From a virus (lineage: Duplodnaviria > Caudoviricetes), in IMG/VR virus record IMGVR_UViG_3300022723_000184, positions 137,947-201,946 of that record: a stretch of 64,000 nt of DNA; one strand, given 5' to 3'. A model generated the notes under the pieces. The model did not search any database and was not told the origin of the DNA. It saw nothing but the letters and a program-made list of their open reading frames with translations. This document shows, one piece after another, positions 11,593 through 51,407 of the stretch (position 1 is its first letter; every line of letters starts with the position of its first letter). The position numbers were made by a program, and so were the translations under genes.

Positions 11593-11629
11593 GTCGCCAA
11601 CAGGCTGCTCATCGACAAGAGGATGAGAC
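11593..11629 (+). repeat. Degenerate CRISPR-repeat-like hairpin in the cas12 5' leader
   Basis: CTGCTCATCG-ACAAGAG-GATGAGAC versus array repeat CTGCTCATCG-GTTTAGAA-GATGAGAC; ends 20 nt before ATG 11650. Confidence 0.8.
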
Positions 11630-11649
11630 AAAAAAAAAAGGAATAGCGC

Positions 11650-13419
11650 ATGGGATTCAATAAGGACCCAGAGGCCCGCTGTGTGGTTTACCAGTACGGC
11701 GGCAAACATCCGACGGAAAACGAAGACGAAGCGATCAACCAGCTCGCCAAGGCGAACCGTTTTCGGAACCGGCTCGTTGAGTTGGAGCTACAACGACGTG
11801 AAGAATACCACGCTGCGTTCTCGGGTTACGGAGACCTGGCGGAGCCGTCAAATCAGCTTGAGACGCTCAACGAGCAGCTGACCGCTGCGGTGGCAGAACT
11901 TAAGGCGTGGAGACAATTGAACGGCACTCGAAGTCAACACCCGACGCTAACCCCGCAGATCGTTTCGCTACGGGCTCAGGCTCGCCAGCTACGGACACAG
12001 ATCAAGTCGATCAAGGAAGCGGCCAAAGGCGATCCTACGGTGCAGGCGGCAATCGAAAAAGCAAACCAGCAGCACCGAGATCAGACCAAAGCTGCGTACG
12101 GCGCTGTAAGAGAATCGAACCCGGAGGCCGAGGACGCCAGAGACCGGCATGGGTTGTTCTGGGGAACGGCCCTCCTAGTTCAAAGGGCAGCGACACAGTT
12201 CCAGAAGGGCCCTCCCCCGAGGTACAAACGTTTCGACGGGACGGGAACTATCGGCGTGCAGCTGCAGAACGGGATGTCTGTGGAGGATCTGTTCACTCCG
12301 GGCGGCAGCGTCTGGATTGACCCCGTTCCTCCGGAGGCCTGGGACCCGCAGACGCCGAGAGGTCAAAGGCGAAAACTCGCAAGAACGATGCTACACATGC
12401 GGATCGGCGGGAAGCCGCAGGCCTGGGTGATTCTAAAGCTACCTGTCACCGTGCACAGACCGCTGCCTGCAGGAAAACTTATCAAGTGGGTCACGGTCAC
12501 TCGGCGTAAGTACGGTTCACAGGCGCGGTGGTATGTAAACGTCACGACGGATATCAGGTCTGGTGGCACGCTTCACGATGATGTTGCGGCTGCCGGATTT
12601 GTGGGTGTCGACCTGGGTTTCAGGTTGTTCAAGCCCGCAGAAAGCAGCTCAGGCAAGCGATCGCTCCGAGTGGCTGTATGGGCCGGAGATGACGGGGAGA
12701 CAGGCGAACTTCGCCTCGACGCGAGGTTTATGTCCTACATCTCAAAGGCCGACGGTTTGAGGTCGATCCGGGACAAGCGGCTTGATCAGATCAGAGCGGC
12801 GCTGCTTCCGTTGTGTGACGAGGCGGGTACGCCGGAGTGGTGGAAAGACGACACTCAACACATGGCCAAATGGAGGTCTCCTCGAAAGCTGTATCACTTG
12901 CTCCACAAGTGGAAAGACAACAGGTGGGATGGCGACAAAACGCTGTTCGATCTGTTGGTTAAGTGGGTAGTTCAGGACCGTCACCTCCACGTGTGGGAAG
13001 CCAACAATCGCCGAAAAGTAGCGGCTCGTCGCCTGGACATGTACCGGAACCTGGCGGCCTCTTTGAGGCGCAAGTACGCGGTTATCGGGATCGAAGACAT
13101 CGATTGGCGGATCTGGAGCAAGTTGGCCCTGCCCGAAGAAGAGGAGACCAAGTCAAAGAAGTTCCGTGTTCAAAAGAAACATGCGGCGGTCGGTCTGCTT
13201 GCAGAGACGCTGTCGAATTGCGGGGCACAGGTTGTACGTTTGGATCCCGCTTACACGACGAAGCGGTGCAACGCCTGCGGCAAGATCACCGAATTTGACG
13301 CTGACCGGCACCTGCGACATACGTGCGAACATTGCCATGCGGAGTGGGACCAAGACTACAATGCGGCAAAGAACCTGCAAGACATGGCGAGCGGCAACGC
13401 CGTAACGCAAACCGCGTAG
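11650..13419 (+). CDS. cas12m: Compact type V CRISPR effector, Cas12m (V-M / V-U1)-like, 589 aa
   Basis: RuvC-I VGVD321LG, RuvC-II IGIE482D, RuvC-III DQD569YNAA; zinc finger C540/C543/C559/C562; blocks RFDGTGTIGVQLQ, LPVTVHRPLP, WRSPRKL recalled as Cas12m-like; adjacent CRISPR array. The subtype needs alignment to confirm. Confidence 0.8.
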   Translation: MGFNKDPEARCVVYQYGGKHPTENEDEAINQLAKANRFRNRLVELELQRREEYHAAFSGYGDLAEPSNQLETLNEQLTAAVAELKAWRQLNGTRSQHPTLTPQIVSLRAQARQLRTQIKSIKEAAKGDPTVQAAIEKANQQHRDQTKAAYGAVRESNPEAEDARDRHGLFWGTALLVQRAATQFQKGPPPRYKRFDGTGTIGVQLQNGMSVEDLFTPGGSVWIDPVPPEAWDPQTPRGQRRKLARTMLHMRIGGKPQAWVILKLPVTVHRPLPAGKLIKWVTVTRRKYGSQARWYVNVTTDIRSGGTLHDDVAAAGFVGVDLGFRLFKPAESSSGKRSLRVAVWAGDDGETGELRLDARFMSYISKADGLRSIRDKRLDQIRAALLPLCDEAGTPEWWKDDTQHMAKWRSPRKLYHLLHKWKDNRWDGDKTLFDLLVKWVVQDRHLHVWEANNRRKVAARRLDMYRNLAASLRRKYAVIGIEDIDWRIWSKLALPEEEETKSKKFRVQKKHAAVGLLAETLSNCGAQVVRLDPAYTTKRCNACGKITEFDADRHLRHTCEHCHAEWDQDYNAAKNLQDMASGNAVTQTA

Positions 13420-13556: not shown

Positions 13557-14301
13557 ATCGTAATACCTGCTCATCGGTTTAGAAGATGAGACGCGGCATT
13601 GATTGCCTTCTTGAGTTGCTGCTCCAACATCGTAATACCTGCTCATCGGTTTAGAAGATGAGACATCGCCGCATCGCTGGAAGCGGGCGTGGCGTCGGCG
13701 GATCGTAATACCTGCTCATCGGTTTAGAAGATGAGACCTTTCTCTGTGTCCGAGATAACGGGGTCACTAATGTCATCGTAATACCTGCTCATCGGTTTGG
13801 AAGATGAGACAAGCATCCGAGCAGCCGCTACAAGGACAAGATCGGCATCGTAATACCTGCTCATCGGTTTAGAAGATGAGACTAGTCGGGCAATTGCTCG
13901 AACGGCACAGAGATATCGTCATCGTAATACCTGCTCATCGGTTTAGAAGATGAGACGCTTACCGGTGGCCGAGGCCAAGGCGCGATGGAGAACATCGTAA
14001 TACCTGCTCATCGGTTTAGAAGATGAGACACGGTGGATCCGGTCGAGCGGCTGATCCTTCACATCATCGTAATACCTGCTCATCGGTTTAGAAGATGAGA
14101 CCCGGTGATCGACGCGGTCCTCGAGAACGCCGAGGACATCGTAATACCTGCTCATCGGTTTAGAAGATGAGACAAGTGGATCAGGTTCTTCTCATCGTAA
14201 TACCTGCTCATTGGTTTAGAAGATGAGACGCGGACTGCCCCGAGATGCGGCGCCGGCTGTGGGTAATCGTAATACCTGCTCATCGGTTTGGAAGATGAGA
14301 C
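13557..14301 (+). CRISPR. CRISPR array, 11 repeats of 36 nt (ATCGTAATACCTGCTCATCGGTTTAGAAGATGAGAC), 10 spacers
   Basis: Repeat starts 13557, 13629, 13702, 13775, 13847, 13921, 13994, 14066, 14138, 14194, 14266; spacers 36, 37, 37, 36, 38, 37, 36, 36, 20, 36 nt; CTCATC/GATGAG stem; 3' GAGAC end. Confidence 0.98.
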
Positions 14302-34787: not shown

Positions 34788-36575
34788 ATGGCAAAACAAC
34801 GAAAAGGAAGTCGGCTGAAGCCTCGCGGCGCCGGCCAGTACAGCAACAAGACACACGCCAAGGGCGACAGCTCGATGCCGCCCGACGACAGGTCGCTCAA
34901 GACCAACCTGGCCCGCGTCACCCTGGTCCGGCCCAAGTTCACCGGCGGCCCCCTGTGGTTCCGCCCGTGGCCGTGCCCGGACTTCGCCGATCCGGAGAAG
35001 CTGGTCCCCGGCCGCGAGTCCACCGAGGCCCGTGGCCAGAGCCAATGGATCGTCCGGGCCGAGATGGCCCCATACATCGGCCTCAACGATCCGGCCTGCG
35101 AGAAGGTGAGCTTCATCACCCGCTACCCGTGGGACCGTGAGGCCAAGCGGAACAACCCGTACCGCGTCCTCTACTTCGCGGCCAAGGACGCTCACGAGGC
35201 CGGCTCCTTCGGGCCCGGCCGCAAGTGGGACTCCTACTGGAACAAGATCCTCAGCGGCAAGAAGGGGCGTGGCGCCGAGCTGGGCTCCCCCTCGCCAAAG
35301 TGGTTCGTTCAGGGCGTGGTGTACGCTAACGGCGAGAAGGACTACACGGCCGATCGCGACCTGCCGCTGGGCATGGACCCGGCGGACGACCTGGTCGTCA
35401 TCCAGATGTCGTCGAGCGCCGGCGGCAAGCTCCTGGACCTCCTTGACATCCCGAAGAAGAACTTCGACGGGGATCCCGAGGAGACCCCTTGGGCGGCGTA
35501 CAAGTACGGCGACTCTTGCGGCATCGTGAACCCGAAGACCGGGGGCATCGATGGCGGCCTGATCATGGGCCTGTTCAACCCGGAGAAGACCAAGGACATC
35601 GTGAAGAACACGTCCTGGGATCCGGACGAGAAGGACCGTGACATCAAGGGCTACGAGGCGGCCATCAGGGCCAGCTTTAAGGGCGCGGACGGCGACGTCT
35701 ACAAGCCCTCGCTCGACGCCGCCCAGGTGCAGCACATCGGCGAGAAGATACAGTTCTGGTGGGACGACGTCGACGAGGCCGGCAACATCCAGTCTCCCGG
35801 CCTCCTGTGGGTCCCGTCGATCGAGGAGCAGTGCGTCCTGATCGCCAAGGCCTTCCGCACCGTCCCGCGGCTCCTGCAATACGCCTGGGCCGACTTCGAG
35901 GACGAGTTCCTCACCGACGACGTGCGTGGTGTGCTCAACGCCCGCAAGTCGGCGGTCATGCCGGGCACGGACGGCGACGAGGACGACGATGATGACGACG
36001 GCTTCGAGGATAAGAAGCCGCCGAAGCGTGGGGGCGCCAAGCAGGATCCCACACAGGCCTCGCAGGACGACGACGATGACGACGAGTTCGAGGACGAGGG
36101 TGAAGAGGAGTCCGAAGCCGAAGCCGAAGGCGACGAAGGCGAAGAGGAGGGTGACGACGATGGCGACGACACCTTCCCCGACGACACGGTCGACGACGGC
36201 GAGGGCGAGGAAGAGCCCGAGTCCGAGGACGGCGACGACGAGGGCCTCGAAGACGATGACGACGAGGACTTCGGCGAAGACGACGAAGACTTCGGCGAGG
36301 ACGCTGGCGAGGAGGAAGGGGAGGAAGAGCCCGAGGGCGACGACTCCGACGACTCTGAGGACGAGGACGGCGAAGAGGAGGAAGACTCTGAGAAGGCCAT
36401 GAGGGCCTCGCTCGACGCCGCCAAGGCCCGCCAGGCCAAGCGTGCCACGAAGGCCGCCCCGGCCAAGAAGTCGACGTCGAAGAAGACGACCGCCAAGAAG
36501 ACGGGCTCCAAGAAGGCCACGTCGAAGAAGACGACGAAGAAGACCTCGGCCAAGAAGACCAAGGCCAAGGGCTGA
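34788..36575 (+). CDS. Possible ssDNA-binding protein with a long acidic tract and a Lys-rich tail
   Basis: 595 aa between polA and the recA-like gene; about 140-aa D/E tract, then KKTTAKKT-type tail; function inferred from position and composition only. Confidence 0.45.
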   Translation: MAKQRKGSRLKPRGAGQYSNKTHAKGDSSMPPDDRSLKTNLARVTLVRPKFTGGPLWFRPWPCPDFADPEKLVPGRESTEARGQSQWIVRAEMAPYIGLNDPACEKVSFITRYPWDREAKRNNPYRVLYFAAKDAHEAGSFGPGRKWDSYWNKILSGKKGRGAELGSPSPKWFVQGVVYANGEKDYTADRDLPLGMDPADDLVVIQMSSSAGGKLLDLLDIPKKNFDGDPEETPWAAYKYGDSCGIVNPKTGGIDGGLIMGLFNPEKTKDIVKNTSWDPDEKDRDIKGYEAAIRASFKGADGDVYKPSLDAAQVQHIGEKIQFWWDDVDEAGNIQSPGLLWVPSIEEQCVLIAKAFRTVPRLLQYAWADFEDEFLTDDVRGVLNARKSAVMPGTDGDEDDDDDDGFEDKKPPKRGGAKQDPTQASQDDDDDDEFEDEGEEESEAEAEGDEGEEEGDDDGDDTFPDDTVDDGEGEEEPESEDGDDEGLEDDDDEDFGEDDEDFGEDAGEEEGEEEPEGDDSDDSEDEDGEEEEDSEKAMRASLDAAKARQAKRATKAAPAKKSTSKKTTAKKTGSKKATSKKTTKKTSAKKTKAKG

Positions 36576-36588
36576 TCGCAGTCGGTGG

Positions 36589-36623
36589 GGGGAGGGCCGA
36601 ACAACCGGCCCTCCCCTATTTTT
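36589..36623 (+). terminator. Rho-independent terminator
   Basis: GGGGAGGGCCG-AACAAC-CGGCCCTCCCC-TATTTTT. Confidence 0.8.
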
Positions 36624-36635
36624 GACCGCTGGGGA

Positions 36636-36671
36636 GTCGTAATGTCCGCTCACCGGCTTGGAAGATGAGAC
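36636..36671 (+). repeat. Solitary CRISPR repeat copy
   Basis: GTCGTAATGTCCGCTCACCGGCTTGGAAGATGAGAC, 30/36 ungapped identity to the R4/R11 repeat variant; ends 11 nt before ATG 36683. Confidence 0.9.
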
Positions 36672-36682
36672 GAAGGAACCCG

Positions 36683-38212
36683 ATGGCTAAAAGAAAACCC
36701 CGTAAGCCGACACCGAAGCCGGACGTTGAGGGCGACGACTTCGACGAGTTCCCGGACGAGGTTCGGGAGCAGTCGGAGCCCAGGGCGTCCAAGAAGGCGG
36801 CCGAGAAGAAGTCCGCCAAGAAGGCGGCGAGCAAGAAGCGGGTGGCCCGAAAGGATCCCCGCGATCAAGAGCAGAAGGGCGAGCAGCGTGGCGAGGTCTC
36901 CGACAAACGTGCGCCCAGACCCGCAAGACCCACGGTGAACCTCGACAAACGCAAGCTGACCAAGAAGCAGAAGGGGCAGCTCGAAGAGTGGCGGGGCAAC
37001 ACGAAGGGCAAGAAGCTCGACAGCTATTTCGCTGGCCAGGTGGAGCAGGCCCGCAAACAGTTCGGTCACCGAGCGGTCATGGCCGCGACCGAGGCCGCCA
37101 ACCTGGTCATCGTGATCCCGTGCCCGAGCCTTGCGTTCGAGTACCTGATCGCCCAGGACGGTTTCCCGCTTGGACTGGTGCTGCACCTGGCGGGTCCTCC
37201 TGGCTCGCTCAAGTCGTCGCTGCTCTTGGAGTTCATCCGCTGGTTCCGCATGGCGGGCGGCGGTGGCATCCTGATGGAGAACGAGACCAAGTACAGCCCG
37301 GACCTGCCCAAGTCGATCCTCGGCTACGAGGACGCCGAGGTGGGTTTGATCCTCAACCGGTGCGTTTCGGTCGAAGACTGGCAGGACAAGCTGACCTACT
37401 GGATCGACACCCAGAAGAAGGGCCTCATCGGCACGAAGGAAGAGCCCGGCCCCGGTCGCACGGTTCCGATTCTGTTCGGCGTCGACTCGATCATGGGCAA
37501 GGCCAGCTACGAGACCCAGGAGAAGGTGGCCAAGGAAGGTCACGCCGAGCGCAGCTTCCCCGTGGAAGCAATGAAGATGACCACCTACATGAAGTCGGTC
37601 CCGCAGTGGATCGACGAGTGGCCCTTTGCCCTCGTCCTCAACAACCATCTCAAGATCGGCAAGGATGACACCGGCCGCGAGGTGAAGAGGACGGCTGGCG
37701 GCGTGGGCGTCAACTTCCAGGAGTCCTGGGAGCTGGAGCCCAGCGTGGTCAAGAGCAAGATCGGCTCAGCGGACTGGGACGGCGTGCAGATCCGCATCCG
37801 TTGCCGCAAGAACTCCATGGGCCCCACGCACCGGCAGATCGAGACCCGGATGCTCTGGTGGGAAGAGGAGAACAAGGAAACGGGCGAGTGGGAGCAGATC
37901 ACCGTCTGGGACTGGGACTGGGCGACGATCAAGATGCTCAGCACCCTCAAGAGCCGCCCAGCGGCCCGGCTCAAGGACGCGGGCTTTCACCTGCAGACGC
38001 CCAAGGTCAGCGACGTGGAAAACACGGCCTGGTCCTCGAACCTCGGCATGAAGGCGAAAGACGCCAAGCCGTGGCAGGAGGTCGGCCGCATGATCCGTGA
38101 GGACGATCAGCTGATGGAGACGCTCCGCACGTGCCTGTCGATCAAGCGGCGGCCGTTGCTGGATGGCGATTACCTGGATCAACTTGAGAGCTTGAGGAAG
38201 GACTTGCCGTGA
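36683..38212 (+). CDS. RecA/UvsX-like recombinase
   Basis: GPPGSLKSS Walker A, MENE, FGVDSI Walker B, LNNHLK, basic N-terminal extension. Confidence 0.82.
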   Translation: MAKRKPRKPTPKPDVEGDDFDEFPDEVREQSEPRASKKAAEKKSAKKAASKKRVARKDPRDQEQKGEQRGEVSDKRAPRPARPTVNLDKRKLTKKQKGQLEEWRGNTKGKKLDSYFAGQVEQARKQFGHRAVMAATEAANLVIVIPCPSLAFEYLIAQDGFPLGLVLHLAGPPGSLKSSLLLEFIRWFRMAGGGGILMENETKYSPDLPKSILGYEDAEVGLILNRCVSVEDWQDKLTYWIDTQKKGLIGTKEEPGPGRTVPILFGVDSIMGKASYETQEKVAKEGHAERSFPVEAMKMTTYMKSVPQWIDEWPFALVLNNHLKIGKDDTGREVKRTAGGVGVNFQESWELEPSVVKSKIGSADWDGVQIRIRCRKNSMGPTHRQIETRMLWWEEENKETGEWEQITVWDWDWATIKMLSTLKSRPAARLKDAGFHLQTPKVSDVENTAWSSNLGMKAKDAKPWQEVGRMIREDDQLMETLRTCLSIKRRPLLDGDYLDQLESLRKDLP

Positions 38213-51167: not shown

Positions 51168-51407
51168 CGGCTCAAAACGCGTCAAAATACATGCAGGCAA
51201 CTTAGCCTGCTCAATCAGGACCCCGGAAGGCTCCGTCGGGCATTTCTGCTCGGCGGGGTCTTTTTCTTTTCACATCCATGGAACAGACCCAGTACCAGAT
51301 GAGCCGACCTTCGGGTCACCTGAGACGGGACCGGTCTGTTCCCTGGATCTGAACCACGTGGCGGCCGGAGCCGCCGAAACAAGACACCTCTCAAGTAGGA
51401 GAACGTC

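Follow-up and report, generated by a model that had tools for sequence, protein, structure and literature searches.

Nucleotides 36636–36671 (+ strand) of the window, the 64-kb stretch of DNA analysed here, form a full-length copy of the 36-nt repeat from the phage's own type V-M (Cas12m) CRISPR array, inserted directly before the Shine-Dalgarno (SD) sequence of a UvsX/RecA-like recombinase gene. This lone copy, A6, belongs to a family of repeats dispersed through the genome, whose helix shows compensatory changes and whose sense members all end shortly before a start codon. We tentatively favour, at somewhat less than an even chance, the reading that A6 is a low-affinity site for Cas12m binding or processing in the recombinase mRNA leader, with the ribosome-binding site (RBS) in the position of the guide.

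The phage encodes a Cas12m effector and its array

The window makes up the final 64 kb of one 201,946-bp contig (62.5% G+C) and carries phage replication and structural genes, including a PolA/UDG fusion, a UvsX-like recombinase and baseplate J, together with a cas12m gene and a CRISPR array (Table 1). The 589-aa product of this gene matches Cas12m structures (23vw, E 6e-67; Cas12m2 8hhl, E 1.5e-26) as well as the Pfam family Cas12f1-like_TNB, and no other Cas12/TnpB-like gene is present in the 202-kb genome. The array leader carries a TATAAT box 7 nt upstream of the first repeat. In published work, pre-crRNA processing by Cas12m orthologues takes place inside the repeat and the proteins retain crRNAs of 50–60 nt (PMC11013384); they bind PAM-flanked DNA without cutting it (PMC11013384; PMC10442227). 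In the structure of the Cas12m2 crRNA, a helix of 6 bp is accompanied by a G(-23).A(-2) pair (PMC10442227), and the PAMs of characterised Cas12m proteins are T- or C-rich, 5'-TTN in the case of Cas12m2 (PMC11013384; PMC10442227).

Table 1. Features discussed in the text, in window coordinates.
Feature	Position	Strand	Description
Copy A5 (repeat-like hairpin, cas12m leader)	11595..11629	+	13.9 bits, E 0.15 with covariance model
cas12m	11650..13419	+	589 aa
CRISPR array	13557..14301	+	11 repeats of 36 nt, 10 spacers (one only 20 nt)
Copy B9 (free-standing unit)	25585..25681	-	repeat 25681-25646, 25-nt guide-like sequence 25645-25621, 11-bp hairpin, T-run
Upstream gene	34788..36575	+	595 aa, Lys-rich tail, no family match
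Intrinsic terminator	36588..36623	+	12-bp G+C-rich stem 36588-36617, then ATTTTT; same place in 5/5 relatives
12-nt linker GACCGCTGGGGA	36624..36635	+	without -10 box; absent from relatives together with the repeat
Copy A6 (lone Cas12m repeat)	36636..36671	+	36 nt; stem pair 18-30 broken (C.A), position 10 C>T
Shine-Dalgarno GAAGGA	36672..36677	+	directly 3' of lone repeat
UvsX/RecA-like recombinase gene	36683..38212	+	509 aa, start ATG 36683

A lone copy of the repeat precedes the recombinase gene

Against the array consensus, the lone copy is identical at 29 of 36 positions, and its seven mismatches (positions 1, 9, 10, 12, 18, 22 and 25) are all transitions. The score rises to 30/36, with six mismatches, against array repeats r4 and r11, because these already carry G25; it is in this comparison that the earlier sequence-only reading of a full-length, 30/36 identical copy differing by transitions alone is borne out. 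Its description of the 3' 14 nt as intact applies to the G25 variant, whereas against the consensus the match covers the last 11 nt. A covariance model built without the lone copy recovered it at 38.5 bits (E 1.2e-7). Its profile score is 38, and shuffled genomes never scored above 12; the 12-mer GGAAGATGAGAC, with at most one mismatch, occurs only in the array and in the lone copy, against 0.35 occurrences expected. A chance origin is excluded. The invariant scaffold positions C11, G13, C14, G34, A35 and C36 are all intact. No Rfam family matched the repeat or the leader, a weak hit to P31 being discarded as it covered the terminator hairpin only.

The layout runs from the T-tract of the terminator through 12 nt of linker and the lone repeat to GAAGGA-N5-ATG of the UvsX/RecA-like gene. 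The strong terminator 12 nt upstream and the RBS and ATG directly 3' are therefore where they had been placed from the letters; the span 36636–36685 originally assigned to the element takes in the RBS and the ATG, the repeat itself ending at 36671. By analogy with the Cas12m2 structure (PMC10442227), GAAGGA would occupy positions 1–6 of the guide, that is the seed, of a would-be crRNA. The recombinase starts at the ATG at 36683, where homologues begin with MAKK, and not at the in-frame ATG that lies within the repeat at 36665. The nearest other copies lie at 25646–25681 and 14266–14301, so that no repeat adjoins the lone copy; it is 22.3 kb from the end of the array at 14301, matching the 22 kb first estimated, and 23 kb from cas12m.

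A sigma-70-like promoter was sought between the terminator and the lone repeat, and none was found; TTGACC at 36622 was rejected as a -35 element, having no -10 at workable spacing. With no recognisable promoter, transcription of the recombinase leader would depend on read-through or on an unrecognised promoter. The lone copy also lacks a -10 box of the kind seen before other copies, and no promoter or terminator belongs to it alone. The 12-nt linker showed no convincing homology to the leaders of other copies.

The copy belongs to a genome-wide family with two classes of placement

The copy had been called solitary, which is correct locally but does not hold genome-wide. A mismatch-tolerant scan of the whole genome, to which profile and structure scans added more copies, located at least 14 dispersed copies in the 202-kb genome (final profile scores 22.7–41, next best site 11), and two further copies, A1 and A5, have 8-nt loops. 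Genes outside the window were called with a simple GC3-based script.

Class A comprises six sense copies, at genome positions 67849, 72751, 101887, 125944, 149541 (window 11595) and 174582 (the lone copy). All six end 11–20 nt before an ATG, with an SD sequence within the first 15 nt after the terminal GAC. It is because of this shared placement that, among the three readings offered from the sequence, a processing or repression site on the recA-like mRNA fits best, the broken stem of A6 counting against it. The genes 3' of the six copies encode two unknowns, a baseplate J-like protein, a 64-aa protein, Cas12m and the UvsX/RecA-like recombinase. Uniform placement of the copies within their own gaps gives a probability of roughly 1e-4 for this arrangement, a figure that is indicative only, the 11–20-nt range having been picked post hoc; moreover, short intergenic gaps force any inserted element near a start codon. 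Copy A1 has the same terminator-repeat-SD layout as A6. In A5, the stem CTCATC/GATGAG, the 5' CTG and the AC tail are those of the array repeat, the loop is 8 nt long, and A10-GGAATAGCGC-ATG of cas12m follows.

Class B consists of about ten copies, all antisense and reading into the 3' end of the neighbouring gene. Most of them have a TATAAT or TATACT box 3–7 nt upstream, in the same geometry as in the array leader; eight sites in the genome have the box TATA[AC]T[GA][AC]C, and six of these precede a repeat copy or the array. B9, recovered at 29.8 bits (E 1.7e-5) by a model built without it, resembles in sequence a small guide-RNA gene. Copies B3 and B4 flank a 2248-aa protein, for whose C-terminus no homologues were found.

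Compensatory changes and older sequence states mark the family

Across 17 distinct copies, 98% of the cells of helix 14-19/29-34 are paired, and at five of its six pairs both sides have changed in a compensatory way. Neither shuffles nor slid registers came near the observed covariation. The signal is partly circular, because A1, A3 and A5 came from a scan that required the stem; the copies at 125944 and 105859, found by sequence alone, also carry compensatory changes. Invariant positions G13, C14, G34, A35 and C36 fit the helix and the G(-23).A(-2) pair of the Cas12m2 crRNA. A putative second helix, 9-11/20-22, is 92% paired and includes a G-C to A-U switch, which is probably a single event. 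Judged from these comparisons between copies, the scaffold fold of the dispersed family is kept by selection.

The age of the copies was gauged with the repeat of the nearest Cas12m locus, L027 (46% identical), as outgroup. G1, C5, G9, C22 and G25 are common to this repeat and the dispersed copies, and it is at these five positions that the array repeat of the present genome differs from L027. Since the dispersed copies keep the outgroup states, they have retained the older sequence while the array repeat drifted, and they are not a recent spill-over from the array. For the same reason, the transitions-only pattern is a property of the whole family and not special to A6.

Five relatives lack the insertion

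No exact copy of the RecA-like protein was found elsewhere. Its homologues occur commonly on contigs of about 200 kb, and the closest one in a set of 5.8 billion proteins has 71% identity. In five relatives (71, 64, 59, 59 and 48% protein identity), the RecA-like gene directly follows the gene for the Lys-rich protein, and where the loci reach further upstream the PolA gene precedes this pair. The 595-aa gene upstream of the lone copy thus has the same place as in the relatives, between the PolA-like and RecA-like genes. All five junctions read stop, G+C-rich terminator, short T/C tract, SD and ATG within 56–82 nt, with neither a repeat copy nor a spacer trace at any of them, and a search of 67.6 kb from the five relatives returned no repeat copies. 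As the relatives lack the repeat, the roughly 48 nt of linker plus repeat are a lineage-specific insertion between the T-tract and the SD.

This comparison bears on two points of the sequence-only reading. Conservation of the repeat at this position, to which it had looked for a check, is not seen at these distances, 5/5 relatives (71–48% protein identity) having no copy. Its suggestion that the copy is a relic of an earlier array location finds no support either: the compact junctions of the five relatives hold no repeat or spacer traces, and the element is a one-repeat insertion that lies nearer to the dispersed subfamily (4 differences) than to the array (7).

The lone copy has a weakened hairpin

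The T18>C change in the lone copy produces a C18.A30 mismatch in the 6-bp stem and leaves five of the six pairs, in agreement with the one stem mismatch noticed from the sequence. Folding prediction gave -2.6 kcal/mol for its canonical hairpin, compared with -7.3 kcal/mol for that of the array repeat. In the free 36-mer of the lone copy, an alternative fold reaches -6.1 kcal/mol and canonical occupancy is predicted to be below 1%, against a predicted 85–98% for the array repeat. The lone copy is one of only two family members with a broken stem pair, and because the C.A mismatch destabilises the canonical hairpin we class it as a weak member of the family. It is nearest to the B1/B2 subfamily (4 differences) and differs from the array at 7 positions.

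Such weakening could also mean decay. We consider it rather unlikely that A6 is a dead insertion, derived from a family that is or once was functional and persisting because 48 nt are harmless between terminator and RBS. The broken pair and the predicted loss of the canonical hairpin are what decay would produce, and at the nearly invariant position 10 the lone copy has T where 15 of the 17 aligned copies have C; this T10, however, would still allow G.U pairing with G21 in the putative second helix. None of the six invariant or four nearly invariant positions of the 17-copy alignment is altered in the lone copy, which speaks against a dead element, as does its sharing the placement of the five other sense copies; its absence from all five relatives and the lack of the -10 box that accompanies most other copies point the other way. 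The 3–4 changes from the nearest subfamily are too few to separate decay from tuning.

Searches for a second target of the lone copy

The RBS at the guide position also admits a DNA-targeting use, which we judge to be quite unlikely. The cut leader would then be a crRNA of the repeat plus about 17–20 nt, directed against the same, PAM-adjacent RBS and start in co-infecting alleles without the repeat. The phage's own site would be spared because the repeat replaces the PAM, in a geometry like that of TnpB omega-RNA guides, and this refinement seems to us just as improbable. A single repeat 5' of the guide is all that type V crRNAs need, and about ten dispersed copies with their own -10 read into native flanks, B9 even having a 25-nt guide and a terminator. 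No second target was found in the genome for the guide of any lone repeat, however: searching the rest of the 202-kb genome with the sequence after the lone copy gave no seed-anchored match of at least 11 nt, and the guides of the other dispersed copies gave only chance-level matches.

One long match, of the flank after B6 to window 51179–51207 (29/31 nt), was considered as a self-target and rejected; we assign it to paralogous intergenic regions. The two places also share a -35/-10-like region and an upstream hairpin, into which the similarity continues, the seed has two mismatches, and a T/C-rich PAM is lacking.

With the 48-nt insert removed, the empty site would place the TTT of the terminator directly beside GAAGGAACCC, as would suit the T- or C-rich PAMs of characterised Cas12m proteins; this adjacency is nevertheless a by-product of the terminator, whose T-tract is there anyway. 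The available relatives differ in the seed region, and the weak hairpin argues against an efficient guide. Nor do the array spacers help to define a target or a PAM, no protospacers having been found: the spacers have no match within the genome, three of them have no exact match in viral contigs, and the array has no match in phage and plasmid record collections.

A model for Cas12m acting on the recombinase leader

According to the reading that we prefer, binding or processing of the recombinase leader by Cas12m, the transcribed leader would offer the effector a crRNA-like handle, with RBS and start codon as the 'guide'. Cas12m would trim the leader, stay bound and cover the RBS, blocking the ribosome, and translation of the recombinase would thereby be tied to the pool of free Cas12m. 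The sign might also be the opposite, with cutting and capping of the 5' end stabilising the message; transcription of the leader, Cas12m binding and repression rather than stabilisation are all steps that we infer. Given its broken stem, the lone copy would be the lowest-affinity operator of the set, responding only at high free Cas12m or not at all.

The same control over five other genes, cas12m included, would constitute a small regulon, and the copy before cas12m suggests homeostatic self-control. It is possible, though doubtful, that this extends to a phage Cas12m regulon in which repeats act as RBS operators on at least six mRNAs and as about ten promoter-driven antisense or guide units. 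The recombinase leader would be the weakest operator of such a regulon and the effector a general RNA-binding regulator of phage genes, a role we regard with the same doubt.

Titration in place of regulation, likewise raised in the sequence-only reading, appears to us very unlikely. The leader repeat would in this case soak up Cas12m as a decoy or sponge, whether that of the phage or that of a V-M system in the host, as an RNA anti-CRISPR (Racr) does. Phage-borne solitary repeats can function as Racrs (PMC10651486), viral RNAs resembling crRNAs compete for Cas proteins (10.1101/2024.10.29.618823), and so many copies in a single genome would add up to a considerable sink. The regular placement over RBSs would be unnecessary for a sink, though, and the lone copy, with the weakest hairpin and without a promoter or terminator of its own, would be an ill-suited part of it. 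The analogy to anti-CRISPRs is weak, since both the effector and the array that the repeat matches belong to the phage itself.

Comparison with known lone repeats and RNA-binding regulators

We found no paper on a phage's own Cas12m repeats spread through its mRNA leaders. The literature does cover standalone repeats beside cas genes, Racrs, viral crRNA-like RNAs and mini-arrays (10.1101/2023.03.03.530964; PMC10651486; 10.1101/2024.10.29.618823; PMC6858448). Lone CRISPR repeats known so far are either host-mimicking anti-CRISPR RNAs or promoter-targeting regulators beside cas genes. In the present genome, the repeats match the phage's own Cas12m, are scattered genome-wide and appear to be kept by compensatory evolution, and the sense copies have an RBS at the place of the guide. 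If Cas12m binds them, a CRISPR effector would be controlling viral genes through their translation or RNA processing. This would be a role not previously seen in nature for CRISPR components, and the arrangement would provide a ready design for RNA-level control with a miniature Cas12, with A6 as a natural weak allele.

Among cellular systems, standalone repeat-like elements lie upstream of cas12a in about half of V-A loci, and CreR acts on DNA, its spacer-like portion having partial complementarity to a PAM-flanked site within the cas promoter (10.1101/2023.03.03.530964; 10.1101/2023.03.10.532045). We propose a likeness in that a degenerate single repeat outside the array keeps its handle hairpin and would be put to regulatory rather than immune use by the cognate effector; A5, in the cas12m leader, sits where the V-A repeat-like elements sit. 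In contrast to CreR, no second DNA site was found here, the copies extend over 170 kb of phage genome, and A6 lies outside the cas locus, 23 kb from cas12m. The sense copies stand in mRNA leaders with the RBS as 'guide', a difference that points to action on RNA.

Racrs resemble the lone copy in being single CRISPR repeats in a phage genome, away from an array (PMC10651486). They differ in mimicking host repeats and in acting as small non-coding RNAs that poison host Cas complexes (PMC10651486), whereas the lone copy corresponds to the array and effector of the phage itself and forms part of an mRNA leader, without its own promoter. Viral crRNA-like RNAs (10.1101/2024.10.29.618823) and mini-arrays (PMC6858448) are promoter-driven units of one or two repeats, and class B looks alike. 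These units use host effectors, however, and their targets are host cas promoters or related viruses (10.1101/2024.10.29.618823; PMC6858448); here the effector is phage-encoded and no target was found. A6 further departs from a mini-array in having one repeat only, the sequence after it being the gene's own RBS and start.

A further likeness that we propose is to TnpB and its omega-RNA (PMC10278001), where a protein of the Cas12 lineage binds and cuts the mRNA that bears its scaffold and the adjacent native sequence is the guide. TldR proteins (PMC10705468) are comparable as nuclease-silent relatives acting as RNA-guided regulators. In both systems the scaffold lies at the 3' end of the protein's own gene, unlike the CRISPR repeats described here, which head several unrelated genes.

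T4 RegA and the MS2 coat protein are translational repressors with operators over the RBS, and RegA-like repression acts on sets of mRNAs. The principle that we propose is alike, a hairpin or operator abutting the SD and one protein acting on several mRNAs, its own included. The components differ, here a CRISPR effector and a CRISPR repeat, with no sequence or structural relation to RegA or MS2.

Lone repeats in other genomes

The repeat and Cas12m had no matches in viral contigs. A metagenome scan for the repeat core returned 54 loci, nearly all due to chance; the only real ones were L107, where a single copy precedes a gene, and the mini-array L093. The phage Rctr197k encodes a Cas12m that is 33% identical and has a 21-repeat array; it was rejected as a relative, as only its polymerase matches, and weakly. 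It has one clear lone repeat, which lies 63 kb from the array and 24 nt before a tRNA-Met gene. On a 2.5-kb metagenome contig, a lone copy of the present repeat family is followed by AGGAGG at a distance of 16 nt and by an ATG at 34 nt.

Lone repeats reading into gene ends

Besides the copies that precede gene starts, the genome carries about ten lone antisense copies of the Cas12m CRISPR repeat, each pointing into the 3' end of the gene it adjoins. Most are preceded, 3-7 nt upstream, by a TATAAT or TATACT box, as is the array in its leader. In three plus-strand genes, which end at genome positions 46794, 53604 and 136048, the reverse complement of the repeat contains the first in-frame stop codon.

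One of these copies, B9, is free-standing and looks like a one-guide crRNA gene: after the repeat come 25 nt (CACACCAAGG...), and these lead into an 11-bp hairpin with a T-run behind it. A search of the genome for a target of the 25 nt found none. Two others, B6 and B7, form a two-repeat unit whose 64-nt spacer holds one of a pair of related regions. These regions, at window 51179-51207 (minus) and genome 124103-124138 (minus), are identical at 29 of 31 nt (TTGCCTGCATGTATTTTGACGC...) and also have the downstream TATTTAGGT in common; they are paralogous promoter-like intergenic regions.

Lone repeats, arrays and palindromes in this and other genomes
Feature	Position	Strand	Remark
Free-standing unit B9	window 25585-25681	minus	repeat copy, 25 nt, 11-bp hairpin, T-run
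Lone repeats	genome 5222-5257, 7620-7655, 46773-46808, 53583-53618	minus	loci L032-L039
Lone repeats	genome 105824-105859, 124039-124074, 124139-124174, 136027-136062	minus	loci L032-L039
Lone repeat	genome 136827-136862	plus	loci L032-L039
Palindrome AAAAAGTACTTTTT	window 6155, 20552, 38776, 47382	plus	
Palindrome AAAAAGTACTTTTT	window 59169	minus	
Palindrome AAAAAGTACTTTTT	elsewhere in genome		about 8 further sites
Rctr197k lone repeat	L111 about 1141-1179 = KX853510.1 175443-175478	minus	63 kb from array
Lone copy of this genome's repeat family	L107 2270-2342	plus	metagenome contig SDBT01226636.1
10-repeat array at nearest Cas12m homologue	L027 11922-12614	plus	

The cas12m leader and a recurrent palindrome

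In the cas12m leader (window 11595-11649, plus), a repeat-like hairpin with a stem identical to that of the array is followed by A10-GGAATAGCGC and the ATG; it is a candidate element through which Cas12m could control its own translation. Within the array itself, spacer 9 (window 14174-14193) is only 20 nt long; the remaining spacers measure 36-38 nt.

The palindrome AAAAAGTACTTTTT, a putative phage promoter or operator, occurs about 13 times in the genome, in nearly all cases 10-40 nt 5' of plus-strand gene starts. It overlaps the 5' part of A4, a sense copy before a gene start; at the antisense copies B3 and B4 it is found immediately 5' of the -10 box.

Repeats in other genomes

The contig encoding the nearest Cas12m homologue (46% identity; 38% G+C) has a repeat that shares the older states G1, C5, G9, C22 and G25 with the dispersed copies of our phage, not with our phage's own array. 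On SDBT01226636.1, the lone repeat has AGGAGG 16 nt downstream and the ATG of a small ORF 34 nt downstream. The unrelated Cas12m phage Rctr197k carries a 21-repeat array at 110.8-112.3 kb, and its lone repeat is followed by 24 nt and a tRNA-Met, a natural repeat-guide-tRNA order in which RNase P could set the 3' end.

A 36-kb contig (JBDNFH010000093.1) encodes a RecA-like protein 48% identical to that of our phage, with the same terminator-RBS junction. Its binning in a Candidatus Nanopelagicales (actinobacterial) MAG gives a weak hint of the group's host range.
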